From the IMG/VR virus record IMGVR_UViG_2609459774_000003, positions 1 to 12,276 of that record: 12,276 bases of DNA, one strand, 5' to 3'. Numbering within the stretch: the stretch's first letter is position 1; every line of letters begins with the position of its first letter. The stretch is from a virus. Its lineage: Duplodnaviria > Heunggongvirae > Uroviricota > Caudoviricetes. The notes under the pieces are model-generated. The model saw only the letters and a program-made list of their open reading frames with translations. It made no database searches and was not told where the DNA came from. Below, piece by piece: positions 1-12,276 of this stretch. A program made the position numbers and the translations under genes.

Positions 1-651
1 TTACCAGTCAATCCAGAGCGGACCGTGTTCAGCGTAAATATAACTGTACACATCCAGATTATATTTGTGGTCTGTTAAGAACAGGCCGCAAATACATGCC
101 GAAGCTTCCAGGGCAGCGGCTCTGTTACTGAATAACCATGTGGCAACATTCCAGCGTTTTTCTGCATCCCAGTCTTTCTCAAGGCCTGATACCATGAAGA
201 AACCGTTAGTGTTGCCATCAAATAATTCTGTTTCCAGATTTTTAAGCAATGCCTGATGGACTCTTGCCAGGTATTCCGCCGGAATTTCGCCACGAATTCT
301 GATGAGATTGTCATAAACAAACATGTTCCCCGCATATGGCGATTTTTCTTTCTTGTTTTTTAAACCAGCATCATGAGCAAACTGATCAATTTCTTCTTCC
401 GTTGGTTTCGTATTGATGTTTTGCGCTGTCGTTTCTGCAATTTTATTTGCCACACTATCTGAGTCGTGTTTATTTACAGACGCACAGAAATACAATCCGG
501 TAAACGCATCGCGCACATTACGAGCCATATTATCAGTGTCTTTTTTCGTTACCGATTCCAATGCAAGTTCGTTCAGACGATGACGAAGTGTGTGTGCTGC
601 AATCTCCTGGATTGAAGTAGGTAAATCTTTAAATTCCATCGTCAACCTCAT
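1..651 (-). CDS. Hypothetical prophage early-left operon protein (216 aa), function unknown
   Basis: Complete ORF with ATG at 651..649 and stop (TAA on minus strand) at 3..1. Its ATG overlaps the stop of the upstream small ORF (CTGATG on minus strand), suggesting translational coupling. No family recognised by eye; moderately AT-rich. Confidence 0.55.
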   Translation of the reverse strand: MRLTMEFKDLPTSIQEIAAHTLRHRLNELALESVTKKDTDNMARNVRDAFTGLYFCASVNKHDSDSVANKIAETTAQNINTKPTEEEIDQFAHDAGLKNKKEKSPYAGNMFVYDNLIRIRGEIPAEYLARVHQALLKNLETELFDGNTNGFFMVSGLEKDWDAEKRWNVATWLFSNRAAALEASACICGLFLTDHKYNLDVYSYIYAEHGPLWIDW

Positions 652-884
652 CAGTCAGAGTTTCTTGCTAACCAGCGATGCGCGCCAGCTTCGGTTTTAA
701 ACGTTTTGCTTTTGGTATACGTCATCGCGGTGAACGTGCCGTCCTGGTTGGGAAACACGCCGCACACCAGAGATTCGTTGTTGCCAAGATCGATAGTATC
801 CATGTTGACCTCATTTCCCCTTAACGCCGGGGTAGCGGAACAAAAACCTGCTGCATAGTTATTAAAGTTGAACCCTGCCGTCAT
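651..884 (-). CDS. Small prophage protein; size and position are consistent with YdaF/YdaG-like small proteins of Rac-type prophages
   Basis: ORF 884..651 on minus strand; GAGG motif 6 nt upstream of the ATG at 884. An internal ATG at 803..801 is also preceded by GAGGT with a 5-nt spacer and would give a 50-aa product, so the true start is ambiguous. Lies downstream of the leftward promoter candidate. Confidence 0.45.
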   Translation of the reverse strand: MTAGFNFNNYAAGFCSATPALRGNEVNMDTIDLGNNESLVCGVFPNQDGTFTAMTYTKSKTFKTEAGAHRWLARNSD

Positions 885-984
885 GTTCTTACGCCTCGGG
901 CTGGCTACTTAACCCCTGACCACTGCCTGGTAACTCGAGGTATTGCCCTGTATTGTGTGGGACGGGATGGGTTGGTATGGGAAA

Positions 985-1026
985 ACTATAGGAAATGCCT
1001 AATTACTTGTCAATAGGCTATGCCTA
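985..1026 (-). promoter_or_regulatory. Leftward PL-like promoter with two operator half-palindromes (OL-like)
   Basis: On the minus strand: -35 TTGACA (1013..1008), 17-bp spacer, -10 TATAGT (990..985). 13-bp dyad sites TAGGCTATGCCTA (1014..1026) and imperfect TAGGAAATGCCTA (989..1001), centres 25 bp apart. Forms a 23-bp perfect inverted repeat with the PR module. Confidence 0.45.
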
Positions 1027-1121
1027 ATAATTTGGGCGCAACCTAATAGGTGATGGTTTGTGGAAGAGGTAGTAGGAGTTAACTAACGGGAACTAGGAAT
1101 TTCCCGTCGGACCATATAAGT

Positions 1122-1598
1122 TTAAGTTCCTGTCTTGGTGATGTTCTGGCTTTTCCGTTTTGATTCTTGATTTTTCAGATAGTTAGCTACCTTCATTTCC
1201 ATTGCGGCAATGTAGGCGCGAACGTCATGATCAACCCAACTAGGCTCCGTAGCATTTCCAGATAAGATGAAAGCCACAATTGCTCTTTTTTCATCAGAGG
1301 CGGCTTGATAAAGGCTGTTTATGTCTAAAAGTTCACTTTTTGTATCTGAAGTGGATGGGGTTGGTATGGGGTATTCGTTAAGCCCCCAATGCTCTGGACC
1401 AACCACATCAGAAAAGAAACGCCATAGTTCTGGAAGTTTGTCTTTACTTATCGAACCTTTCTTAATCCAGTCATGGATTGATGGTGGTTGGACTTTGAAA
1501 TGACGTGCGATTTCCGCCTTTGATTTGACGGCTCCTGATGCAATTTTTTTGTTAATGGCCTGCTCTATCGCTCGGCCTAAGTCTTTACCACTAAGCAT
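1122..1598 (-). CDS. racR: Prophage repressor, RacR-like (158 aa)
   Basis: 158-aa ORF; sequence recalled as matching the Rac prophage repressor RacR, with an HTH-like segment near the N-terminus. AGGAGA RBS 8 nt upstream of the ATG at 1598. Divergent from the ydaS-like gene, a classic immunity-region layout. Confidence 0.8.
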   Translation of the reverse strand: MLSGKDLGRAIEQAINKKIASGAVKSKAEIARHFKVQPPSIHDWIKKGSISKDKLPELWRFFSDVVGPEHWGLNEYPIPTPSTSDTKSELLDINSLYQAASDEKRAIVAFILSGNATEPSWVDHDVRAYIAAMEMKVANYLKNQESKRKSQNITKTGT

Positions 1599-1627
1599 TG
1601 CTTAATAGTCTCCTATGCGCATCGCGT

Positions 1628-1695
1628 TAGGCAATCCCTATTCTCGATGTATTAGGCATAGCCTATTGACAATTTCATTAGGCTAAGCCTAATAT
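1628..1695 (+). promoter_or_regulatory. Rightward PR-like promoter with tripartite operator (OR-like) in the racR-ydaS intergenic region
   Basis: -35 TTGACA (1666..1671), 18-bp spacer, -10 TAATAT (1690..1695). Three 13-bp dyads TAGGC-N3-GCCTA: TAGGCAATCCCTA (1628..1640), TAGGCATAGCCTA (1653..1665), TAGGCTAAGCCTA (1679..1691), centres 25-26 bp apart. Confidence 0.5.
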
Positions 1696-1722
1696 TGTTG
1701 CGTGTTTTTTGGAGTTCATTCG

Positions 1723-2043
1723 ATGAAAAAAGATAACTATTCATTCAAACGAGCTTGTGCTGTTGTCGGTGGGCAATCAGCAATGGCTAGGCTTTTAGGT
1801 GTATCTCCTCCAAGCGTAAATCAATGGATCAAAGGTGTACGTCAGTTACCTGCTGAGAGATGTCCTGCGATTGAACGAGCAACAAAAGGTGGTGTCCTGT
1901 GTGAAGAACTTCGTCCTGATGTTGATTGGACATACTTACGACGCTCGTCATGTTATTCGCAGAATATGTCGATGAAGCAACCAAATGACGAAAACGATCA
2001 TAAAAACGCAGAAATGCATGACGTGTGGCAATCAGGCAGATGA
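1723..2043 (+). CDS. ydaS: Cro-like HTH regulator, YdaS-like
   Basis: ATG at 1723 preceded by GGAG (1711..1714); the ORF-track start at 1702 lacks an RBS. N-terminus MKKDNYSFKRACAVVGGQSAMARLLGVSPPSVNQWIKG is HTH-like and recalled as YdaS. Divergent from racR. Confidence 0.75.
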   Translation: MKKDNYSFKRACAVVGGQSAMARLLGVSPPSVNQWIKGVRQLPAERCPAIERATKGGVLCEELRPDVDWTYLRRSSCYSQNMSMKQPNDENDHKNAEMHDVWQSGR

Positions 2044-2248
2044 TCCGCATCACATCATGGGTCATGGACTGGGAGGGATGGGAACAAAGGCTGATGATTT
2101 GTTTGTTATTCCGCTGTGCCGTAAATGCCATAGCGAACTACACGCCGGGGTAAAAGATTTTGAAGAAAAACACGGCAGCCAGCTGTTGTTGCTGATTCGT
2201 TTTTTAATGCACGCGAGAAATTCGGGTGTCCTGAAGTGGAAAGCATGA
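1985..2248 (+). CDS. DUF1364/YbcO-like Cys/His-rich putative zinc-dependent nuclease
   Basis: 87-aa ORF with CxxC ... HH ... PLCRKCHSELH pattern resembling nin-region YbcO-type proteins. Its 5' end overlaps the ydaS-like ORF (start ambiguous, 1985 or 2018); its stop TGA (2246..2248) abuts the rusA ATG. Confidence 0.55.
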   Translation: MTKTIIKTQKCMTCGNQADDPHHIMGHGLGGMGTKADDLFVIPLCRKCHSELHAGVKDFEEKHGSQLLLLIRFLMHARNSGVLKWKA

Positions 2249-2614
2249 ATGACTGAACGCATAGAATTTGTTTTGCCTTACCCGCCAACGGTGAACACTT
2301 ACTGGCGACGTCGTGGCAGCACATATTTTGTATCAAAAGCCGGTGAGCGTTATCGCCGTGATGTGGCGCTTATTGTTCGCCAGCAGCGACTGAAATTAAA
2401 CCTGTCCGGACGGCTGGCGATAAAGATTATTGCAGAGCCACCGGATAAACGTCGTCGTGACCTGGACAATATCCTGAAAGCACCACTGGATGCGCTGACG
2501 CATGCCGGACTTCTCATAGACGACGAGCAGTTTGATGAAATCAATATTGTGCGCGGTCAGCTCGTTCCTGGGGGGCGGCTGGGCGTGAAGATTTACAAAA
2601 TTGAGAGTGAGTGA
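2249..2614 (+). CDS. rusA: Holliday junction resolvase RusA
   Basis: 121-aa ORF; the RRRDLDN segment and overall size match the RusA family. ATG follows immediately after the upstream stop (ATGAATG), and its stop overlaps the next start (GTGA). Confidence 0.85.
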   Translation: MTERIEFVLPYPPTVNTYWRRRGSTYFVSKAGERYRRDVALIVRQQRLKLNLSGRLAIKIIAEPPDKRRRDLDNILKAPLDALTHAGLLIDDEQFDEINIVRGQLVPGGRLGVKIYKIESE

Positions 2615-3168
2615 TCGTAAATATGATATACCCGGAAATTACAGGCAAAAGCGGCGAGCATTTACGTCTAAAAACGCTGGAAGCCGTCTGGATCCAGGGG
2701 AAATTACGGATGTGGGGGCGTTGGTCGTACATAGGTGGTGGCAAACCAGGAAATATGTTCAATCAGTTGCTGGCATCCAAAACACTTACAAAAACTGCGA
2801 TCAATGAAGCTCTGCGCAGAATAAAAAAATCAGGGATTGATAAAACTGAGCTGGAAGCGTTTTTGCGTGAGATGATCAACAGCAAGCAAAAGAGCGGGCT
2901 GGCTTATTGTACTGATGCCGAGGCGTTATGTATCGATCGGGTAATTAGTGAAGTGTTGGCAGAGCATCCGGGATTGATTTGTATCCTCCGACAAAGATAT
3001 GAAGGGCTGGGTATGAGCAAGCTGAAAATGGCAGAACAGTTAAAAAAGAATCACCCTGACTGGAGCCTGAAAACTTGTAGAAATCGCATTGATGTTTGGT
3101 TGGCGATGGCTGAAACCATGCTTTTCCTTCCAATGTGCGTGGCACTTCGGTGCTTTTCTGATAACTGA
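2611..3168 (+). CDS. Putative late-gene antiterminator Q-like protein
   Basis: 185-aa ORF in the canonical position after the nin/rusA genes. GTG start at 2611 overlaps the rusA stop; alternative ATG at 2623. Assignment is mainly positional, with weak recalled similarity to small Q-family proteins. Confidence 0.5.
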   Translation: MIVNMIYPEITGKSGEHLRLKTLEAVWIQGKLRMWGRWSYIGGGKPGNMFNQLLASKTLTKTAINEALRRIKKSGIDKTELEAFLREMINSKQKSGLAYCTDAEALCIDRVISEVLAEHPGLICILRQRYEGLGMSKLKMAEQLKKNHPDWSLKTCRNRIDVWLAMAETMLFLPMCVALRCFSDN

Positions 3169-3197
3169 TGATAGAAGTGCATCAGCTATCAATCTTG

Positions 3198-3226
3198 TTG
3201 ACGTTCATCAAGGTCTGGACAATACT
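3198..3226 (+). promoter_or_regulatory. Candidate sigma70 promoter downstream of Q (pR'-like position)
   Basis: TTGACG (3198..3203), 17-bp spacer, AATACT (3221..3226), about 30 bp upstream of the ATPase start. The -10 is weak; this is a sequence-only guess. Confidence 0.25.
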
Positions 3227-3257
3227 TACGTTAAGTTCCAACATATGGAAGATAAGA

Positions 3258-4448
3258 ATGATATTTACACGATTGAGATTTATCAATTTGTACGCTTTTG
3301 AGGATGCAGAGCTTAACCTGTCCTATCCAAGGAAACCTGTAAACATGCCTCTTGATGGGGAGTTTTTGGCTGGACGGCCTAAATTTTACTATAAAAAAGT
3401 CTGTATCATAACGGGGGGAAATGCTTCAGGTAAGACGTCACTAGGGCGAATTCTTTGTGGAATTCAGGTGTTTCTAAGAACCAAAGAGTTGCGGAGTAAT
3501 CTGCGAGTGAATAATAAAAATAATGATGCTTCGTTTGAAGTGGACTTTGCTACGGAGGATCATTTTCATCATCGTTTGTATGTACGCTTTGCTACCAGTG
3601 AAGGCGGAGCGCACATAATCAAAGAAATTAAATATGGTTTTGTTCAAATAGCATTAAATGATTCTTGCCATAAAACCACAGAAAAACTGAATCAACTCTT
3701 TTCTGGAAGGGCCCCAGAAGATACAGAATATTTTTTTCAGGAACTAGCTACTGATAGCGAACCAGTTGTATTGGAGTTTTTCAAGCAACTTAAGTTTTTT
3801 GGTGGATGGTACTATTTGTTGTCTGAAACTAAAGAGAGTACCACTGCAATTTCAGGAATGAATAAAAATATTCTTGAAAGGATAATTCGCACTTTCGATT
3901 CAAGTATTATAGGAGTTACCGAGATGCTGGAGTCTGAAAGTGACGGGGATGAAAATAAATCATCTGCGGTTTATCTGATTAAATTTAAAAACTCTGATTC
4001 TCTTGTCGTTACCAGTAAAGGTGAAATAATTAACTCAGACCGTCTTTCTCGAGGAACATACGAGGCAGTGACGGTAGCGCATTTTATAAGCGCTATTATC
4101 TCTGATTGTGAAAGACTAGGTAAGCAATCTCTAATACCATCAATGACTTATTTTCTTGACGAGAAATTGGCTTATACACATTCAGAGTTAGAGCGTATGA
4201 TTGTGGCGCTGATTATATCTAATTTGAAAGAAAATACTCAGTTTTTCTATACAACGCATAACATGGATATTTTTGAGTTGGATCTGCCTGTTCACTCGTT
4301 CATTTTTATTAAAAAAACGAAAGACTATTCGGAGTTTGTTGAAGCAAATTCAGTTGTTAAAAAAAATGACCGTAGCATGCGAAACGCTGTTGAGAGAGAT
4401 GTCTTTGGTGTCTTACCTGACACATCATTAGTATCGGAGCTACTCTGA
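3258..4448 (+). CDS. OLD/AAA_21-like ABC-type ATPase (396 aa), candidate defence-system ATPase
   Basis: N-terminus MIFTRLRFINLYAFEDAELNL typical of SMC/RecF-like ABC ATPases. Walker A ITGGNASGKTS, ABC signature-like LSRGT, Walker B YFLDE, H-loop TTHN, with about 200 aa inserted between Walker A and the signature. AT-rich relative to flanks. The ORF-track start at 3168 is an RBS-less upstream extension; ATG at 3258 chosen. Confidence 0.75.
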   Translation: MIFTRLRFINLYAFEDAELNLSYPRKPVNMPLDGEFLAGRPKFYYKKVCIITGGNASGKTSLGRILCGIQVFLRTKELRSNLRVNNKNNDASFEVDFATEDHFHHRLYVRFATSEGGAHIIKEIKYGFVQIALNDSCHKTTEKLNQLFSGRAPEDTEYFFQELATDSEPVVLEFFKQLKFFGGWYYLLSETKESTTAISGMNKNILERIIRTFDSSIIGVTEMLESESDGDENKSSAVYLIKFKNSDSLVVTSKGEIINSDRLSRGTYEAVTVAHFISAIISDCERLGKQSLIPSMTYFLDEKLAYTHSELERMIVALIISNLKENTQFFYTTHNMDIFELDLPVHSFIFIKKTKDYSEFVEANSVVKKNDRSMRNAVERDVFGVLPDTSLVSELL

Positions 4449-4981
4449 TGGCGGGGTTGTCTAAAATAAGAATAATTTTTGTCGAAGGTGAAACAGAAAA
4501 CTCTCTTTTTCTGAAGATGAAACAACAGAGAGTTATTGATGCCAAATCAATTGTAAAAAGAAACTTTTGGCAAGAGAGCATAAGAAATTATGCGATTACT
4601 ATTCCGAAGGGAAGTGATATACTAATTGTCTTTGATAGTGATGAAGTGGAGCAATCTGCAAGATTCATTGAAAATGTAAAGTTCCTTAAAAACAGAGGGC
4701 ATAAAGTTTATCTTTTGCAGCAGAAAAGAAATTTTGAGGAGGAGTTGGCCTGGTGTTGCGGAATTCCTGTAAAAAAACTAATTGCTGGGTTCTGTGCAAA
4801 AAAAACATCGGGTATAAATGATTTCAAGAGAGATTTTATTGCTTGTAACAATCAACTTTCAAAGTTACTGAAAATGGGCATGCAGGAAACTAAGTGGTTT
4901 ACAAGAGATTTACATGCTGTATTGGAGCCTGTTGCAAGTTTTAAGTCATCTTTTTCTAAACATTTCAGGTTAACAAGATGA
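4448..4981 (+). CDS. Small TOPRIM-domain protein (177 aa), putative nuclease partner of the ATPase
   Basis: N-terminal IIFVEGETE (conserved TOPRIM glutamate) and ILIVFDSDE (DxD motif). ATG overlaps the ATPase stop (TGATG), with GGAG 8 nt upstream. AT-rich like its partner. Confidence 0.7.
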   Translation: MAGLSKIRIIFVEGETENSLFLKMKQQRVIDAKSIVKRNFWQESIRNYAITIPKGSDILIVFDSDEVEQSARFIENVKFLKNRGHKVYLLQQKRNFEEELAWCCGIPVKKLIAGFCAKKTSGINDFKRDFIACNNQLSKLLKMGMQETKWFTRDLHAVLEPVASFKSSFSKHFRLTR

Positions 4982-5116
4982 TTTATTTTCTTTTTTGTTC
5001 AGCTGATTGTTTTTGTTTGTAAAATGTCTTGATTTTTTGCCAATAAACTGTTTCAATCCAGCTACGCTTCGCAAAGCTGTACCGCGAGGCGAATAGCAGA
5101 CATGGACACCTGAAAG

Positions 5117-5140
5117 AACCCGCTTTATGCGGGTTTTTTT
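5117..5140 (+). terminator. Rho-independent terminator
   Basis: Stem AACCCGC / GCGGGTT with loop TTTAT, followed by a T7 run (5134..5140). Confidence 0.7.
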
Positions 5141-5263
5141 ATGCCTGAAAAACGGCACAGAACATTAAACGCGCTGGTAGTTGTGAATACTGGTCTTTCA
5201 GCTTGCTGGCTTTTTCGACAAGAGGTATTGGTATATCACGTTAACCAGAAAAGGGAAAAAGGC

Positions 5264-5461
5264 ATGCTAAAACAGCAGGATATGACCGAAACCGCCAGAG
5301 TGGTGTTTAATGAATTAAGCGTCACCGAACCGGCGACCGTCGGGGAAATTGCGCAGAATACTTACCTTTCACGCGAACGCTGCCAGTTAATACTGACTCA
5401 GCTTGTTATGGCGGGTCTGGCAGATTATCAGTTCGGTTGTTACAGACGCCTTCCGCAGTGA
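5264..5461 (+). CDS. Small hypothetical protein (65 aa)
   Basis: ATG at 5264 preceded by a purine-rich AAGGGAAAAAGG stretch. The longer ORF-track version (5141) would begin inside the terminator T-run and is unlikely. Confidence 0.45.
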   Translation: MLKQQDMTETARVVFNELSVTEPATVGEIAQNTYLSRERCQLILTQLVMAGLADYQFGCYRRLPQ

Positions 5462-5611
5462 AGGCTTTTTAATTTGTGGTAATGGGCGGCTGGTGGGTGT
5501 TAGCGGCACCTGCCAGCCATCTGCTCATGCGTTGGGGTCACAAGCAAACCTCAGGCCCATCTGCTTTGCGCAAAAGCGGTATGAGCCTATCAGAGAAGTG
5601 CTTATTGATCT

Positions 5612-6661
5612 ATGGCCAATACTGTAAAAATATCCAGTTGTGAGTTAATCAACGCTGATTGCCTGGAATTTATCCAGACCTTACCGGAAAATTCTGTCGA
5701 TCTGATAGTCACAGACCCGCCATACTTTAAAGTGAAGCCCGAGGGCTGGGATAACCAGTGGGAGGGCGACGATGATTACCTGAAATGGCTGGACCAGTGT
5801 CTGGCGCAGTTCTGGCGGGTACTGAAGCCTGCCGGAAGTCTTTACCTGTTCTGTGGTCATCGCCTGGCATCTGACACCGAAATCATGATGCGTGAGCGCT
5901 TTAATGTGCTGAACCACATTATCTGGGCGAAGCCGTCCGGACGCTGGAACGGGTGCAATAAGGAAAGTCTGCGGGCGTATTTTCCGGCAACAGAGCGCAT
6001 TCTGTTTGCAGAACATTATCAGGGACCGTATCGCCCGAAAGATGATGGCTATGTGGAGCAGGGGCGCGAGCTAAAACAGCACGTCATGGCCCCGCTGATT
6101 TCTTACTTTCGTGATGCGCGTAAATCACTGGGAATAACGTCAAAACAGATAGCGGAAGCCACCGGAAAGAAAAACATGGCTTCGCACTGGTTTGGTACCA
6201 GTCAGTGGCAGTTACCGAACGAGGGTGATTACAACAAATTGCAGGCGTTGTTTGCGCGTGTTGCGGCAGAAAAACATCAGCGCGGGGAACTGGAAAAGCC
6301 ACACCACCAGCTGGTCAGCACATACAGTGAGCTGAACCGGCAGTATACGGAACTGCTGAGTGAATATAAAAATTTGCGGCGGTATTTCGGTGTGACGGCG
6401 CAGGTTCCGTACACCGATGTCTGGACGCATAAACCGGTGCAGTACTATCCAGGAAAACATCCGTGCGAAAAACCGGCAGAAATGCTGCAGCAGATAATCA
6501 ACGCGAGCAGTCGTCCGGGAGACCTGGTTGCAGATTTTTTTATGGGTTCAGGTTCAACGGTAAAAGCGGCGATGGCACTGGGGCGTTGTGCGATTGGTGT
6601 TGAGCTGGAGACCGGACGTTTTGAACAGACAGTCAGGGAAGTTCAGGATTTAATCGTTTGA
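5612..6661 (+). CDS. DNA N6-adenine/N4-cytosine methyltransferase, beta-class (orphan, phage-type)
   Basis: Motif IV DPPY (VTDPPYF) near the N-terminus and motif I FxGxG (DFFMGSGST) near the C-terminus, the beta-class order. No adjacent restriction endonuclease is visible. Confidence 0.85.
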   Translation: MANTVKISSCELINADCLEFIQTLPENSVDLIVTDPPYFKVKPEGWDNQWEGDDDYLKWLDQCLAQFWRVLKPAGSLYLFCGHRLASDTEIMMRERFNVLNHIIWAKPSGRWNGCNKESLRAYFPATERILFAEHYQGPYRPKDDGYVEQGRELKQHVMAPLISYFRDARKSLGITSKQIAEATGKKNMASHWFGTSQWQLPNEGDYNKLQALFARVAAEKHQRGELEKPHHQLVSTYSELNRQYTELLSEYKNLRRYFGVTAQVPYTDVWTHKPVQYYPGKHPCEKPAEMLQQIINASSRPGDLVADFFMGSGSTVKAAMALGRCAIGVELETGRFEQTVREVQDLIV

Positions 6662-6710
6662 AACGGATGAGATTGCAGAATTAATTACGCACCATTATTA
6701 TTCTGCTCCC

Positions 6711-6786
6711 GGCCCTTTAGCTCAGTGGTGAGAGCGAGCGACTCATAATCGCCAGGTCGCTGGTTCAAATCCAGCAAGGGCCACCA
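6711..6786 (+). tRNA. ileZ: tRNA-Ile2 (anticodon CAU, lysidine type; could be annotated tRNA-Met by software)
   Basis: Manually folded cloverleaf: acceptor GGCCCTT/AAGGGCC, D-stem GCTC/GAGC, anticodon loop CTCATAA, T-arm GCTGG-TTCAAAT-CCAGC, encoded CCA. Closely resembles E. coli tRNA-Ile2. Confidence 0.8.
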
Positions 6787-6793
6787 TCACATA

Positions 6794-6870
6794 CCGCCAT
6801 TAGCTCATCAGGATAGAGCGCCAGCCTTCGAAGCTGGTTGCGCGGGGTTCGAGTCCTCGATGGCGGTCCA
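6794..6870 (+). tRNA. argN: tRNA-Arg (anticodon UCG)
   Basis: Manually folded cloverleaf: acceptor CCGCCAT/ATGGCGG (unusual C1:G72), D-stem GCTC/GAGC, anticodon stem CCAGC/GCTGG, loop CTTCGAA, T-arm with one G:U pair, encoded CCA. Confidence 0.7.
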
Positions 6871-6883
6871 TTATCTGCATTAT

Positions 6884-6960
6884 GCGTTGTTAGCTCAGCC
6901 GGACAGAGCAATTGCCTTCTAAGCAATCGGTCACTGGTTCGAATCCAGTACAACGCGCCA
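6884..6960 (+). tRNA. argO: tRNA-Arg (anticodon UCU)
   Basis: Manually folded cloverleaf: acceptor GCGTTGT/ACAACGC, D-stem GCTC/GAGC, anticodon stem ATTGC/GCAAT, loop CTTCTAA, T-arm ACTGG-TTCGAAT-CCAGT, encoded CCA. Confidence 0.8.
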
Positions 6961-6974
6961 CGCTTATTTTTCCA

Positions 6975-6997
6975 GGCTCGCTTCGGCGGGCCTTTTT
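6975..6997 (+). terminator. Rho-independent terminator after the tRNA cluster
   Basis: Stem GGCTCGC / GCGGGCC (one G:U pair) with a UUCG tetraloop, followed by TTTTT (6993..6997). Confidence 0.6.
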
Positions 6998-7135
6998 CAT
7001 ATCCGCGCCACGCCCGGCGCACATCAAAAAACCACAGAGCCTTTCAGGGATGAGCTTACGGGATGGTCAGTGTGACTTTCTCTGTGGGCTGGTCACCCCC
7101 GGGCGCAGGCTCACCCACTAAAAGGAAAAGTCACG

Positions 7136-7561
7136 ATGTTTGGTATTTTCAAAAAGAAAACCCGCAAGGCCATTACCGAGGTGAAGAAGATGGAGAACCG
7201 TGACGCAGTGGAGGCGACCGTCTGGGGCGCGTACTCCATTGCATACGCTGACGGCACCTGTGACGCGAAAGAAATCGCGGTACTGGAAAAAACCATTGCA
7301 GCACTTCCTGTCTTTGCGCCGTTCTCCGGTGAGATTGCACAAATGAGTGCAAATATCCGCGCCCGTTATGAAGCGTCGCCGCGTTCTGCCAATGCCGAAG
7401 CTCTTCGTCAGCTGGCTGATGTTGCCGGTACTGATGATGCAGTTAATGTGCTGTGCCTGTGTCTGGATATCGCTGACCAGGACGGTATCGGTCAGGAAGA
7501 AGAAGCGCAACTGAAGAAAATTGCGCAGGCGCTGCAGTTGCCGCTGGAGCAGTACCTGTGA
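7136..7561 (+). CDS. TerB-like domain protein (tellurite-resistance TerB family fold), cargo gene downstream of the tRNAs
   Basis: 141-aa ORF with AAGGA RBS; acidic helical protein whose ADG/DQDG and EEEAQL features resemble TerB-like domains. Sits where stx or other cargo genes sit in related phages. Confidence 0.5.
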   Translation: MFGIFKKKTRKAITEVKKMENRDAVEATVWGAYSIAYADGTCDAKEIAVLEKTIAALPVFAPFSGEIAQMSANIRARYEASPRSANAEALRQLADVAGTDDAVNVLCLCLDIADQDGIGQEEEAQLKKIAQALQLPLEQYL

Positions 7562-8559
7562 AAAGTGCGCGCCTTGTGCTGGCTGTCATCCTGTTGTTTC
7601 TGGTACAGGCTGCAGCCGTACACACGTTGTACGGGTATATCGATTATCTTGCCAGAAATCTGTTGCCGGACATGTGTGATGAAGACTGGTTGTACCGGCA
7701 CGCCAGAATCAAACGCTGCCTGCGAAAAGATGCGGTGACAGCCCGGGGATTTGTGCGCTGGGATGGCGTAGAGGGAACACCTGTATTGCCAGCGGGAACG
7801 CAGATCCAGCGTGATGATCAGGTGACCTTCACCACGACGGCGACGGTGACCGCAGCCGATGGTCTTCTCCGGGTGCCTGTTGTGGCAGATGAACCGGGGG
7901 CGGCGGGGAATACGGATGATGGTATTGCCATGCAACTGGGAACACCCGTCAGTGGTCTGCCGTCCACAGGGTACGCGGACACCATTACAGACGGTGAAGA
8001 TATTGAAAATCTGGAAATATGGCGTGCCCGCGTTATGGAACGTTATTACTACATTCCACAGGGGGGCGCAGACCCTGATTATGTTATCTGGGCGAAAGAA
8101 GTTCAGGGTATTAACCGTGCATGGACTTTCAGACACTGGAAAGGCATTGGAACGGTTGGCGTGATGGTGGCGACAAACGATCCGGAACATCCGGCTCCGG
8201 ATGAAAGCGTCATTAATGCAGTCAGAGAACACATTCTTCCTCTGACACCGGTTGCCGGAAGTGGATTGTATGTATTCGGTGCCACAGAAAAAGTCATCCC
8301 GATGACGATTGCATTATCGAAAGACACACCGCAGATCAGGACTGCAATAAAAGCAGAGCTGAATGCACTGATGTTACGGGATGGTGTGCCAGAGGGGCGT
8401 ATGTATCTGTCCAGAATCAGTGAGGCCATCAGTTTGTCTGCTGGTGAAGTGGCTCACCGGTTAATCGTCCCTTCATCGGATATTGACCTGGGGGAGACCG
8501 AGCTTCCGGTGCTCGGCGAGATCACCTGGCAGGCTTATGACCCGGCAAGGAGTAAATAA
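7558..8559 (+). CDS. Baseplate J-like protein (Mu gp47 / P2 gpJ family), probably 5'-truncated or fused at a deletion junction
   Basis: The conserved baseplate-J core appears only about 25 aa from the start. The preceding N-terminus (GTG start overlapping the TerB-like stop) is hydrophobic and unlike the family. The rest is GC-rich and tail-like. Confidence 0.6.
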   Translation: MKSARLVLAVILLFLVQAAAVHTLYGYIDYLARNLLPDMCDEDWLYRHARIKRCLRKDAVTARGFVRWDGVEGTPVLPAGTQIQRDDQVTFTTTATVTAADGLLRVPVVADEPGAAGNTDDGIAMQLGTPVSGLPSTGYADTITDGEDIENLEIWRARVMERYYYIPQGGADPDYVIWAKEVQGINRAWTFRHWKGIGTVGVMVATNDPEHPAPDESVINAVREHILPLTPVAGSGLYVFGATEKVIPMTIALSKDTPQIRTAIKAELNALMLRDGVPEGRMYLSRISEAISLSAGEVAHRLIVPSSDIDLGETELPVLGEITWQAYDPARSK

Positions 8560-9518
8560 TGGATTCGTTACAGGATGATTATACAAAGCTGCTGTACGGA
8601 CTGATGCCGCCGGGGCCTGCATGGAGCGATACCGACGGCGTGCTTGATGGTCTGGCACCATCGCTTGTACGTGTTCATCAGCGGACTGATGAACTGATGG
8701 CTGAAATCGATCCTGGTCAGTCAACAGAGCTGATTGAACGTTATGAAGAATTGTATGGTTTACCTGACACCTGCTCTCCTGTTGGAGCCCAGACATTACG
8801 CCAGCGTCAGCAACGGCTGGAAGCAAAAGCCAATGTGGCTGGTGGCATAAATGAGCAGTTCTTCCTGGAGCAGCTTGAGGCGCTGGGATATACCGGCGTG
8901 ACGATCGAACAGTTCCAGCACCTGGATGCAAGCCCCGATCCGGAATGGGGTGATCGCTGGCGTTATTTCTGGCGTGTGACGTTGCCGGTGGATGCCGGTG
9001 CTCAGTGGCAGACATGTTCGGACACCTGTAACACACCGATCCGGACGTGGGGTGATACGGTTGCGGAGTGCGTGATTAATAAATTATGTCCGTCGCATAC
9101 TGTTGTCCTTTTTGCATATCCGGATGAGTCTGGTGAAGGGCAACAAGCCGCCCTGACTATAAACAGCCTCTCCTTTCAGGCCGGACACAAGACGACTGAG
9201 CCATTAGCGATTAATCATACAGGTGTTCATTTTGCGGTTGTTCCGGCACTGACAGGTAAGCCGCTGACAATTAACCGGATTAACTTTTATGCCGCCCGTC
9301 CGATGGCAGAACCACTGGTACTCAGCAGGGCGCAATTGCACTCAGGTCTGCCGACAACGGACCCCATGACCATGAACAGCGCACAGTTGCAGACGGGATA
9401 CAGGACCCGCTCCCCCGTACCGGTTAACAGTATGCAGTTGCAGACAGCCAGCAGAACCCGTGAACCGTTATTGATTAATCACCCGGGACTGCATTTTGCT
9501 GTGGTCACGTCCGAATGA
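8559..9518 (+). CDS. YmfQ-like (DUF2313, Mu gp48-like) baseplate protein with a ~125-aa repeat-containing C-terminal extension
   Basis: ATG overlaps the upstream stop (TAATG), with AAGGAG RBS. The N-terminal ~190 aa is recalled as YmfQ-like. The C-terminus carries degenerate repeats (EPLAINHTGVHFAVV / EPLLINHPGLHFAVV; AQLHSG / AQLQTG / MQLQTA). Confidence 0.7.
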   Translation: MDSLQDDYTKLLYGLMPPGPAWSDTDGVLDGLAPSLVRVHQRTDELMAEIDPGQSTELIERYEELYGLPDTCSPVGAQTLRQRQQRLEAKANVAGGINEQFFLEQLEALGYTGVTIEQFQHLDASPDPEWGDRWRYFWRVTLPVDAGAQWQTCSDTCNTPIRTWGDTVAECVINKLCPSHTVVLFAYPDESGEGQQAALTINSLSFQAGHKTTEPLAINHTGVHFAVVPALTGKPLTINRINFYAARPMAEPLVLSRAQLHSGLPTTDPMTMNSAQLQTGYRTRSPVPVNSMQLQTASRTREPLLINHPGLHFAVVTSE

Positions 9519-9541
9519 CATAAAATAAAAGGAGAGCCGCT

Positions 9542-10591
9542 TTGAATATTATTAAACTCGAAAGTTTTCGACAAATTCCGGCGAATGAGGGATTGTGCGA
9601 GAACTATTATTCAACAAATATTATTTCAGCACTGAACGAAAACGGTGTCACGCTTATCAATGATATGTCCGGTTCTGTAACATCCGTCTGTCGTGGCACT
9701 CAGGCCGTAAATACTGTAGAAAGAACGGGGCTGATTTTTACGACACCCTCATATGTCACACTGTACAGCACACTTCCGGACTTAAAAGCCTCAGCTGTAC
9801 AGCTGGGATTTCGTCTGACATTAAGTGCGGGAAAGAAATATTCATCTTCGCCATCCCACATCAGGATTAATGGCTATTCATTTACAACCCCGTATCCTGA
9901 TGAAGCAGCCAGTTATTACTATGAAATTTTCGCAACGCGAAACGAAAACGGCTATGTCTCAGCCAGTCTGTACTGCAACCGCTCATTAGTTGGAAATACA
10001 TCGTTTTATGTACCAGATGACCGGACTGACAAAATTCAGGTGAGTATTGGTGGTGGTAACAATATTTTTTCATCGGGTGCATCCGGCACGTTAATGCTGG
10101 GTGATATGTACTGTGGAACAGTGACATACGGTAGAAATAATAGTGCAGAACCCGCCCTGCTCGGAAGCATTGAGGTCAGATACAGCCCGGTAACGGCATT
10201 TACCGGTGGAAGCGCCAAAAACTCACTGAATAAAGATATTGTCACGGGGCTGAACACCTCTGACAGCGAGGCCGGATATCTGATGCTCTCGCCGTCCCTG
10301 AATGCAGCACAGGCCACGTTTGGTGCGGTGGATAACAGCAACAGTGATGTTGTGGCCGTTATGGCCTCGGTCACTTACCGCGGTGCTGATGCCCCCAATA
10401 ACCGCCTGGCCTGGAAAGTGAAAAATGGCAGCCATGAAGGCGCAACGATTACAGAGAATGGCGTACAAAGCGACACAAACAGCTGGACGACTGTCTCACA
10501 GAGTTTTATGACCCAACCAGGAGGGAGCACTCCCTTCGCTAAGGGTGAACTGACTTTTACAGCGGAATTGTTTAATCAGGCAAGGACATAA
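9542..10591 (+). CDS. Hypothetical tail-associated protein (349 aa), S/T/N/G-rich, possible receptor-binding or cargo protein
   Basis: TTG start with a strong AAGGAG RBS 7 nt upstream. Lower GC than the neighbouring baseplate genes. No recognisable catalytic motifs; composition is typical of beta-rich fibre or lectin-like domains. Confidence 0.55.
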   Translation: MNIIKLESFRQIPANEGLCENYYSTNIISALNENGVTLINDMSGSVTSVCRGTQAVNTVERTGLIFTTPSYVTLYSTLPDLKASAVQLGFRLTLSAGKKYSSSPSHIRINGYSFTTPYPDEAASYYYEIFATRNENGYVSASLYCNRSLVGNTSFYVPDDRTDKIQVSIGGGNNIFSSGASGTLMLGDMYCGTVTYGRNNSAEPALLGSIEVRYSPVTAFTGGSAKNSLNKDIVTGLNTSDSEAGYLMLSPSLNAAQATFGAVDNSNSDVVAVMASVTYRGADAPNNRLAWKVKNGSHEGATITENGVQSDTNSWTTVSQSFMTQPGGSTPFAKGELTFTAELFNQART

Positions 10592-10621
10592 TTCTGATAT
10601 TTCATTCACGGGAGGTTTAAT

Positions 10622-11731
10622 ATGCACAGAATTGACACTCCGACAGCAGTTAAAGATAAATTTGGCCCGGGCAAGAACGGATTTACTGACGGGAATATTC
10701 GTACAGGGCGTCATGCCACCTGGCTGAACAGTGCCATGTGGGATGCCCTTCAGGAGGAAATCTGTGGTGTCATTGAGAAGGCCGGGATAGAACTGAATAA
10801 AGAGGAACACGACCAGTTATATAAAGCCATATTATTACTGGTTGGCGGTGCGATTAACGAAGAGGCATTGCTGATAAAAAATAATCTTTCGGATGTCGAA
10901 GACAGTGATGAGGCTGTTGAAAACCTCGGATTAAAACCCACGGTGGATAAGGCAAAAAATGCCGTTCAGCGTGATGGAGACACCATGACCGGGGAGCTGA
11001 AAATCCGTGGCGTTAATGCACTGAGGATTTTCAACGAAGCCTTTGGTCTGATTTTTCGTCGTTCGGAAGAGTGTCTGCACCTCATTCCTACCCGGGAAAA
11101 TCAGGGCGAGAGTGGTGATATTGGGCCGCTACGCCCCTTTACGCTTAATCTCAGGACCGGTCGCATAACTATGGGACATGGTCTGGATGTTACAGAAGAT
11201 GTATTTGCAGGCCGTTTTGCGATTAACAGCAGTAACGGAACGTGGATTCAGATGCGTGACAACAACGTTATTTTCGGGAAAAACAGGATAAATACTGATG
11301 CTGCTCAGGCGCTTCTGCGTCAGGATCATGCAGACAGAAAGTATTTCCTGGCTGGTCTTGGGAATAAGCAGTTTGGCATTTACATGATAAATAATAGCCG
11401 TACGGATAATGGTACGGACGGTCAGGCGTATATGGATGATGCGGGAAACTGGCGATGCGGGCGTCAGGTTATACCGTCAGACTACGGAAACTTCGATGCC
11501 CGCTACCAGACCAAAACAGGTGGCGTACAGAATTTTCAGTATACCAGTGAGGTGTTTTACAACCCGGGCGGGAATGAGCACAGCTGGACGTTTCGAGCAC
11601 CTTCTGGTTGTGTTTTGTCAGGCATTAATGTTCAGGATACTGGCCGTAACTCTGCAGACAATATCGGTGGCGTGTATTACAAACAGGCTCAGATTTATAT
11701 TAATGGTGCATGGCGATCTGTATCAGGTTAA
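10622..11731 (+). CDS. Side tail fibre protein (Stf-like)
   Basis: N-terminus MHRIDTPTAVKDKFGPGKNGFTDGN matches the conserved N-terminus of enterobacterial prophage side tail fibres. DGDTMTGEL motif present. GGGAGG RBS. Confidence 0.8.
   Translation: MHRIDTPTAVKDKFGPGKNGFTDGNIRTGRHATWLNSAMWDALQEEICGVIEKAGIELNKEEHDQLYKAILLLVGGAINEEALLIKNNLSDVEDSDEAVENLGLKPTVDKAKNAVQRDGDTMTGELKIRGVNALRIFNEAFGLIFRRSEECLHLIPTRENQGESGDIGPLRPFTLNLRTGRITMGHGLDVTEDVFAGRFAINSSNGTWIQMRDNNVIFGKNRINTDAAQALLRQDHADRKYFLAGLGNKQFGIYMINNSRTDNGTDGQAYMDDAGNWRCGRQVIPSDYGNFDARYQTKTGGVQNFQYTSEVFYNPGGNEHSWTFRAPSGCVLSGINVQDTGRNSADNIGGVYYKQAQIYINGAWRSVSG
10913..10938. other. Candidate Hin/Gin/Pin-family invertase crossover site inside stf
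   Basis: GCTGTTGAAAACCTCGGATTAAAACC: the left half TTGAAAACC and core match the hix/gix consensus as recalled. It falls at the ENLGL-encoding constant/variable junction of the fibre gene, as in Mu G and e14 P segments. Confidence 0.4.
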
Positions 11732-11745
11732 TTAAGGAGAAAATA

Positions 11746-12276
11746 ATGGAACTCTCAAACATTACGCGTTACTACCCTGAAGACATGCCTTATGGTGACG
11801 GCATTCAGTATTTCCGTAGTGAAGACGGGCAGGATTTTTATGAATCACTGGATAAATTCACGAAGAAATACAAGCTGTGCACGCATCCTGAAACCGGCGT
11901 TATTTATTCCGTGGCGGAAGATGTATCCCGTCTTTATCCCGTTGGTTTTACCATTGTGGAAGTGGATGAACTACCGGATGGCTTTTGTATAGAGGCGCGC
12001 TGGTATTATAAAGACGGTGAAGTACTACCGGTCCCTGTTGACTACAGGCAGCAGGCAGAGTCGGAGCGTGCACGTCTTACTGCGATTGCCGAACGGGAAA
12101 TATCCGATAAGAAGACGGATTTACTTTTGGGAATCATCGGTGATGAAGAAAAAGAAAAGCTGACAGTCTGGCGCATTTACGCGAAATTGCTGCAGGCGAT
12201 GGATTTCAGCACCATCACTGATAAAACCTCATATAACGCCATTGAATGGCCCGTCTCTCCGGAAGCCTCTTCCTGA
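11746..12276 (+). CDS. Tail fibre assembly protein (Tfa-like, 176 aa)
   Basis: ATG at 11746 with AAGGAGA RBS 5 nt upstream. N-terminus MELSNITRYYPED is typical of Tfa/U-family chaperones. Stop is at the window end (12274..12276). The ORF-track start at 11710 overlaps stf and lacks an RBS. Confidence 0.8.
   Translation: MELSNITRYYPEDMPYGDGIQYFRSEDGQDFYESLDKFTKKYKLCTHPETGVIYSVAEDVSRLYPVGFTIVEVDELPDGFCIEARWYYKDGEVLPVPVDYRQQAESERARLTAIAEREISDKKTDLLLGIIGDEEKEKLTVWRIYAKLLQAMDFSTITDKTSYNAIEWPVSPEASS

Follow-up and report, generated by a model that had tools for sequence, protein, structure and literature searches.

Genes found next to the late antiterminator gene Q of a lambdoid prophage raise the question of whether they are under the control of Q. 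This question was studied in a stretch of 12,276 nucleotides (nt), positions 1 to 12,276 of the IMG/VR virus record IMGVR_UViG_2609459774_000003 (hereafter, the window), where the genes of an ABC-type ATPase and of a small TOPRIM-like protein lie between Q and a block of methyltransferase and tRNA genes. A first-pass annotation had already placed the pair there, and this was confirmed. The same annotation considered the pair as defence-like cargo that occupies the slot of the late promoter pR', as stx does in Shiga toxin (Stx) phages, and that ends in a strong terminator of its own; either the pair would depend on Q or its insertion would have separated Q from its original target. Our results make it quite probable that the pair is an AbiL-like cassette with its own promoter, located between the Q stop codon and the cognate pR' and late terminator (tR') of Q, and that it is not Q-dependent. 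The coordinates of all the features are given in Table 1.

The alignment to relatives without the insertion, a check which that annotation had proposed, was carried out with three of them (L005, L002, and L004). In these prophages about 39 bp take the place of window positions 3115-5020, and identity resumes at 5021 or 5028, so the boundary on this side lies at 5021/5028; the putative pR' and Q utilisation site (qut) lie in 5029-5140. In L005, the Q stop codon is inside AAAATGTCTTGA (window 5021-5032), where the conserved block overlaps the end of Q. On its own side, the cassette is delimited by the comparison of copies found in unrelated contexts: the homology starts a few bases before the -35 box of the cassette promoter (about 3194) and extends to the stop codon of the TOPRIM gene (4981), directly past which the contexts diverge. 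The G+C content is 0.36 across the cassette versus 0.45 in Q and 0.46-0.51 downstream. Because of this deviating composition and of its absence from most relatives, the pair is predicted to be foreign and horizontally acquired. No terminal direct or inverted repeats were found around the cassette, and transposon- or integron-like ends were rejected for this reason.

Past the pair, 1.86 kb downstream of the Q stop codon, begins the conserved block. Alignment of 36 distinct sequences downstream of DUF1133 Q genes revealed that TTG (5029-5031), ATAAACTGYTTCAAT, TAnGCTTCGCAArGCT (5063-5078), and a 7-bp hairpin are invariant or nearly so among them. The spacer of the putative pR' holds the invariant ATAAACTG at 5043-5050, where a Q-binding element is expected. 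Known Q cassettes consist of the Q gene, a pR' with the Q-binding element between -35 and -10, a -10-like element early in the transcript, a terminator, and the late genes (10.1101/651190; PMC6606751). By analogy with the qut sites of lambda and phage 21, the TAnGCT element is a candidate for the pause role. When the loci obtained by a motif pattern search were pooled with those fetched earlier, about 190 usable block loci resulted, and in 169 of them the motif starts between -4 and 91 nt past the stop codon of a DUF1133 Q gene. The window contains a single copy, at 5043-5078, downstream of the pair. The distance found in the window, compared with that of the other loci, supports the proposal of a Q parted from its original target by the insertion.

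The linkage of the block to Q was also evident from phages with other gene contents. In phage vB_EcoS-683R6 (L007), the block again follows Q, but what comes next is tRNA-Thr/Gly and, after it, the genes of holin, lysozyme, and spanin; the methylase module is missing. It is therefore Q, and not this module, to which the block is linked. The part comprising the terminator, a conserved open reading frame (ORF) of 65 aa, and the methylase also occurs in SfV and Ayreon, two phages with longer Q genes (753 nt), as well as in phiP27 and in several Stx2 phages. In the records of these phages, the match to the window does not begin until 5129 or 5114. Matches to the promoter half (5021-5094) are confined to the neighbourhood of genes annotated as antitermination protein Q, of DUF1133 type as shown in L007. 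Since the phages of other lineages match only the distal part, the half that goes with Q is 5021-5094, which is what one would expect if it held a qut site. A search of phage records for near-identity to 3100-5200 matched the block alone, in one phage. All these data indicate that 5029-5140 is probably the pR'/qut/tR' region of the phage backbone. Like the Q cassettes of lambda, 21, 82, and the Stx phages, the window has a Q gene (here of the Q21 family), a promoter-like block that normally abuts it, a spacer with an invariant sequence, a -10-like element close to +1, a strong terminator some 77 nt further on, and then late-region genes. The window differs from those cassettes in that Q and the block are 1.86 kb apart, with foreign DNA in the interval, and its Q-binding element, pause, and start sites are putative.

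The terminator at 5117-5140 is as strong as the first-pass annotation had claimed (-18.2 kcal/mol for the 37-mer, z -7.3), and it is the first one on the + strand downstream of the cassette. Its attribution to the cargo was not maintained, because it lies within the backbone common to the relatives without the pair and is most likely the phage tR'. Past the leader hairpin the aligned sequences diverge, and yet a strong terminator comes next in every case. At this position, other alleles present three unrelated stem sequences, each folding at -16 to -24 kcal/mol; as three different stems at one site all fold strongly, the terminator seems to be under selection. RNAalifold misregistered the stems when applied across the terminator types, and each type was folded separately instead. 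The homologous site of SfV is annotated as a terminator after Q, and phage Ayreon has an annotated terminator under the matching site. Thus, as in known Q cassettes, an intrinsic terminator is present between the promoter and the late genes. The consensus scan missed 5117-5140, presumably because its stem can be extended into the T-run. By analogy, pR' and tR' would give a short transcript of about 77 nt, the predicted counterpart of lambda 6S RNA and StxS (PMC7547250). Lambda and the Stx phages have known short RNAs of this kind, with termination between pR' and tR', and IsrK of Gifsy-1 has been interpreted likewise (PMC7547250; PMC4825925). A match of Rfam isrK (RF01394) at 5066-5139 was rejected, as it reached 21.6 bits against a gathering threshold of 50 and corresponds to a generic 5' hairpin plus terminator; the true isrK of locus L119 scores 69.4.

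The candidate promoter TTGACG-17-AATACT upstream of the ATPase gene was subjected to the same kind of comparison. Taken alone, the site is no better than chance (10 promoter-like sites versus 17.7 expected in the consensus scan). The TTGACG-17-(A/G)ATACT motif is invariant across six diverged cassette lineages, with spacers and upstream sequences that diverge. Three of these lineages (the window, L215, and the remnant in L214) follow Q. The other three are without a neighbouring Q: the copy of L089 comes from Erwinia, that of L090 adjoins the integrase of a different prophage, and that of L094 is next to a gene for an LPD/MuF polyvalent protein. This conservation suggests that the site belongs to the cassette and is a real candidate promoter, as had been noted. 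The palindrome over the Shine-Dalgarno sequence of the ATPase gene could be an operator or a ribosome-binding-site (translational) hairpin. On the + strand, the consensus scan of 3155-5447 detected no terminator-like site. Given that the cassette homology ends at the stop codon and that no terminator precedes 5117, the cassette is predicted to have its own promoter and no terminator of its own.

Morons are autonomous accessory phage genes with their own promoter and terminator and a deviant composition. The cassette of the window resembles them in its conserved promoter, its deviating G+C content, its presence or absence among similar phages, and the expression expected in the prophage. Unlike morons, it lacks its own terminator and relies on the downstream sequence, here the phage tR'.

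The Q gene of the window is intact. Its product matched Phage_antitermQ (PF06530) with 31.5 bits (cut-off 26), which places it in a recognised antiterminator family, and a PHROG of anti-termination protein Q-like function (1.2e-74). The family profile found in the PDB, as sole significant matches, the solved Q21 chains 6P18 and 6JNX (E 5.7e-05); the single-sequence search of the PDB gave no match. As PF06530 was above its threshold and the profile found only Q21 structures, the Q protein of the window is, by homology, a member of the Q21 family. This agrees with the previous naming of DUF1133 as a Q antiterminator through HHpred (PMC8136144). DUF1133 Q proteins amount to about 900 clusters. 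The AlphaFold2 model of Q was poor (predicted local distance difference test 55.7). The C-terminal tail (...LFLPMCVALRCFSDN / ...PMCVALRCFSDN) is native to the allele. The Q allele P0146, which is 87% identical, ends in ...PMCVAFERFSDN (CVAFERFSDN), and since the odd tail is common to both alleles, the stop codon of Q is native and the insertion lies after it; truncation of Q by the cassette was consequently rejected. A terminator-like hairpin at the end of Q (3141-3154) was also discarded, because it folds no better than shuffled sequences (z -0.6).

With respect to the pair itself, both genes are adjacent and co-oriented, and the ATPase stop and TOPRIM start codons overlap (TGATG, 4446-4450), so that they are translationally coupled; the pairing is retained in all the contexts examined. 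The ATPase matched the PADLOC model AbiLi (PDLC02335) with an E-value of 7.6e-26 (88.9 bits) and, more weakly, AriA (1.5e-07) and Pfam AAA_15 (8.5e-07), besides PHROG 5836 (2.5e-126). It has all the catalytic motifs: Walker A GGNASGKT (3414-3437), signature LSRGT (4044-4058), Walker B YFLDE (4149-4163), and H-loop TTHN (4251-4262). Its homologues form 212 protein clusters; among phage records, the protein search recovered only distant ATPase homologues, with about 32-34% identity, in two phages. The family of the TOPRIM-like partner is small (24 clusters among 5.8 billion proteins), and its invariant residues E13/G14/E17, D63/D65, and N95/E97/E99 draw the Glu...DxD pattern of TOPRIM domains. 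The hidden Markov model (HMM) matches of this family are weak and consistent: 18 of 22 members match AbiLii (best 2.8e-06), eight OLD-like_TOPRIM, and six RloB. Judged from these residues, the catalytic motifs of the ATPase are intact, and so are the putative TOPRIM ones of its partner. PDB searches gave no match for the ATPase with the single sequence, nor for the TOPRIM-like protein with the single sequence or the family profile, and a search of NCBIfam provided no useful names.

AbiL, PARIS, and RloAB form a recognised class of defence pairs that combine an ABC ATPase with a TOPRIM/OLD protein (PMC13064643). The window pair shares with AbiL (AbiLi/AbiLii) of Lactococcus the arrangement of adjacent, co-oriented genes, in which an ABC/Rad50-like ATPase precedes a small TOPRIM/OLD-like protein (PMC13064643). 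It differs in being very distant in sequence, in residing in an enterobacterial prophage and not in a lactococcal plasmid, and in being known here from its genes alone. The 177-aa protein matched neither AriB nor DUF4435, and without such a partner the pair is not PARIS AriAB. These comparisons allow us to regard the pair as a putative AbiL-like prophage defence cassette. The composition, the absence from relatives, and the HMM matches to defence families are all in favour of the previous view of defence-like, horizontally acquired cargo next to Q.

The analysis shows the gene content, the boundaries, and the linkage of the block to Q, and also that both promoters and the terminator are conserved; from these data the following behaviour may be proposed. 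In the lysogen, transcription of the cassette would start at its own sigma-70 promoter and, as it has no terminator of its own, its transcripts would run across pR' and stop at tR', so that the late genes would be spared constitutive transcription from the cargo. At induction, early transcription past Q could add to the expression of the cassette. Q would act only on polymerase started at pR', which is downstream of the pair, so the pair would not depend on it. As Q acts in trans, its separation from the target should be harmless, and both Q and the block are intact. On the model of AbiL, PARIS, and OLD-family systems, the ATPase is proposed as the sensor of infection and the TOPRIM protein as the one that would cut nucleic acid, so as to shield the lysogen population from other phages.

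The possibility that the pair is part of the late operon and, like stx, is turned on by Q at induction was considered very improbable. The pair is directly downstream of Q, with a promoter-like site past the Q stop codon and, like stx, it is accessory cargo between Q and the lysis genes, a position in which the cargo of Stx phages is Q-dependent (PMC7547250). However, stx is downstream of pR'-tR' (PMC7547250), whereas the putative pR' of the window comes after the pair, and so does the one copy that the window has of the conserved Q-linked motif. In addition, the cassette promoter is the same in copies without Q nearby, there is no terminator between this promoter and the genes that Q could override, and the 90 bp from Q to the ATPase gene are dissimilar to the block. 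The data consequently support neither the comparison with the stx slot nor the Q-dependence considered by the first-pass annotation. It could also be argued that 5029-5140 is an ordinary promoter/attenuator of the 65-aa ORF and methylase module, and that the true target of Q is elsewhere, for example near the deleted lysis genes. That module is indeed found behind Q genes of other lineages, such as those of SfV (753 nt) and Ayreon, the pR' of DUF1133-type Q is experimentally undefined, and the proposed -10 is non-canonical. We consider this explanation unlikely, because SfV and Ayreon share only the sequence from 5129 onward and the promoter half is restricted to annotated Q genes, because in L007 the block lies between Q and the tRNA and lysis genes without any methylase module, and because the block abuts Q in the great majority of the loci.

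A further alternative concerns the function of the pair: it might act as a module of addiction or of a toxin-antitoxin-like kind, or its nuclease and ATPase might benefit the phage in its own cycle. PARIS-type ATPase/TOPRIM pairs act as toxin-antitoxin pairs (PMC13064643), the family has no phenotype on record, and the persistence of the cassette as nearly the sole prophage remnant in L214 would be explained by addiction too. Against this, the best HMM matches are defence families, the positions occupied by the cassette (at the integrase end, at a polyvalent protein gene, and after Q) are typical of prophage accessory genes, and its absence from most otherwise similar phages indicates that it is dispensable for the phage cycle. 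In our opinion this alternative is rather doubtful.

Several observations weigh against the reading of a self-promoted defence cassette inserted ahead of pR'. The proposed -10, TTCAAT, has T and not A at position 2, for which reason the consensus scan omitted it. Direct repeats like those bound by the Q protein of phage 21 (TGAGCA x2; PMC6606751) were sought in the spacer, and none was convincing. The spacer and -10 of L215 read ATAAACCATTCTAAT versus ATAAACTGTTTCAAT in the window, so the motif is not universal; it may be that Q and its site co-vary. The start site, the pause, and the Q-dependent read-through, as all the transcription behaviour described above, are predictions, and we found in the literature no experiment defining pR', qut, or tR' for a DUF1133-type Q. 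Concerning the pair, the TOPRIM-like protein of the window alone matched AbiLii only with E 1.5e-3 (17.2 bits), reaching no confident threshold. Fold searches with this protein did not single out TOPRIM, Foldseek against the PDB on its model being uninformative, and no tested anti-phage phenotype was found for any family member close to the pair, whose defence activity is thus a prediction. The AT-rich cassette could be silenced despite its promoter, for instance by H-NS. Finally, as the replication, lysis, and head genes have gone from the prophage of the window, the late switch may no longer matter in its strain.

The pair is present in 7 of the 5,426 complete Escherichia coli genomes, always in the Q/block context, and at least 80% of window 5021-5300 was found in 727 of them, O157 strains included. 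ETEC B7A, E200086, and CB209 are carrier strains of the pair. L215 is colinear with window 2036-6609 at 88.6% DNA identity and has the same order of Q, cassette, and block (L215 5001-7700). At the protein level, Q is 86.7% identical, the ATPase 76.3%, and the TOPRIM-like protein 92.7%; the ATPase of L215 has diverged far more than Q or the TOPRIM partner. The colinearity with L215 suggests that the association of the pair with Q is old within one Q-allele sublineage and stably inherited; the pair is rare but not recent. On the matter of insertion versus ancestry, the foreign composition and the absence from most relatives uphold the insertion, and the L215 data show that within this sublineage the pair has been inherited together with Q. 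In L214 (3700-5534, Logan ERR10124956 contig), a 3' remnant of Q and the cassette are the only recognised prophage genes between ttcA and uspF, the Rac attachment locus. Both are flanked by GTATGGTACGGATTA direct repeats. The cassette has outlived the remainder of the prophage there, which suggests selection for keeping it.

The same junction between DUF1133 Q and the block holds other cargo. In 15 of the approximately 190 loci, 850-904 nt separate them and contain isrK, a C4 antisense RNA, and an ORF6N antirepressor-like gene. For example, L119 has at 6385-6572 the true isrK (Rfam) and the C4 antisense RNA (67 bits), with the ORF6N ORF downstream. This IsrK/C4-antirepressor module, of Gifsy-1 type, resembles the window cassette in its location and in having its own promoter, and differs from it in consisting of a small RNA, a C4 antisense RNA, and an ORF6N protein and in bringing its own terminator. 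The arrangement of L217 (recorded as 'Actinobacillus phage vB_Apl-pPE4') is apparently the same, judged by the sizes and positions of its ORFs alone. In phage Ayreon (L008, 1300-2017), an ORF of 141 aa, with an annotated terminator on either side, separates Q from the shared module of terminator, 65-aa ORF, and methylase, and is a further example of small Q-proximal cargo.

Two unrelated modules at one junction, the AbiL-like pair and the IsrK/C4-antirepressor module, also allow a wider proposal, to which we give only a slim chance of being correct. The junction of the Q stop codon and pR' would be a recurrent docking site for self-promoted cargo, with tR' as the shared insulator, and cargo transcription into pR' could tune the late switch. 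The tuning would proceed either by promoter interference or through polymerases that retain sigma-70: these would be halted at the -10-like element, and Q would capture them.

Table 1. Features of the window considered in this work, in order of position.
Feature	Position	Strand	Details and evidence
racR	1122-1598	-	first in the gene order
rusA	2249-2614		upstream neighbour of Q
Q antiterminator gene, DUF1133 family, Q21-related	2623..3168	+	intact, 181 aa; Pfam DUF1133 8.4e-99
Candidate cassette promoter	3198..3226	+	-35 TTGACG 3198-3203, 17-nt spacer, -10 AATACT 3221-3226; consensus scan 9/12
Palindrome TTCCA-N5-TGGAA over ATPase Shine-Dalgarno	3236..3250	+	TTCCAA and TGGAA invariant in all six lineages
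ABC-type (AAA_15/21) ATPase, AbiLi-like	3258..4448	+	396 aa from annotated start; PADLOC AbiLi
Small TOPRIM-like protein (AbiLii/RloB-like)	4448..4981	+	177 aa; start overlaps ATPase stop
T-rich junction spacer, without terminator	4982..5020	+	cassette homology ends at stop; backbone homology from 5021 (5028 versus L004)
Putative pR'	5029..5057	+	-35 TTGATT 5029-5034, 17-nt spacer, -10 TTCAAT 5052-5057; invariant columns of the Q-downstream alignment
-10-like TAnGCT near +1, candidate sigma-dependent pause element	5063..5068	+	TA.GCTTC invariant in all alleles
Leader hairpin GCTTCGC...GCGAGGC	5066..5090	+	seven pairs retained in 9/9 distinct sequences; part of the minimum-free-energy fold
Intrinsic terminator, read as phage tR'	5117..5140	+	hairpin and seven T
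65-aa conserved ORF	5264..5461	+	first gene past the terminator; PHROG 331, 1.4e-37
N6/N4 DNA methyltransferase	5612..6661	+	late leader; Pfam N6_N4_Mtase 1.9e-44
Three tRNAs	6711-6960		

The window corresponds to a Rac-like lambdoid prophage of E. coli that has undergone extensive deletion. After racR come a ydaS-like helix-turn-helix gene and a DUF968 gene, of which only a C-terminal remnant is left ahead of rusA. From rusA, the order is Q, the ATPase/TOPRIM pair, the 65-aa ORF, the methyltransferase, three tRNAs, a TerB-family gene and then, abruptly, baseplate and tail-fibre genes. Two deletion junctions were recognised. At 2001/2002, the ydaS-like gene is fused to the last 87 codons of the DUF968 gene and 5.4 kb are absent with respect to the intact relative L001; at about 7603-7605, the junction lies between the TerB gene and a truncated baseplate J gene, and the lysis, terminase, and head genes are absent with respect to L005. 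The whole window was not found at one place in any complete E. coli genome searched, and its halves, 1-7605 and 7603-12276, match separate places in all of them.

The 65-aa ORF (WP_000917767.1) is encoded identically in relatives with and without the pair and shows a weak TrmB-like winged-helix match. Its place directly 3' of the terminator is conserved in many E. coli prophages, in Ayreon, and in SfV, where it is orf47; it also matches phiP27 and Stx2 phage records. The tRNA at 6711-6786 was identified by ARAGORN as tRNA-Met (CAT), and the same gene is labelled tRNA-Ile in RefSeq relatives, as expected for a lysidine-modified CAT anticodon. It is followed by two tRNA-Arg genes (TCG and TCT), and such a tRNA trio is typical of lambdoid late leaders. 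The TerB-family gene (7136-7561) is also part of the late leader; in relatives, it lies between the tRNAs and the holin genes and is followed by a DUF3927 ORF.

The results obtained with this locus have consequences beyond the window. Cargo adjacent to Q is not automatically controlled by Q, as the side of pR'/qut on which it lies is decisive, and comparative data place the pair upstream. The block provides a testable candidate late promoter, qut, and tR' for the DUF1133 branch of the Q21-family antiterminators, and the small and rare enterobacterial ATPase/TOPRIM family is a candidate defence system. The Q/pR' junction, moreover, is used by two unrelated types of cargo and, if it were a docking site as proposed above, the activity of a defence module would be coupled to the late gene expression of the prophage.

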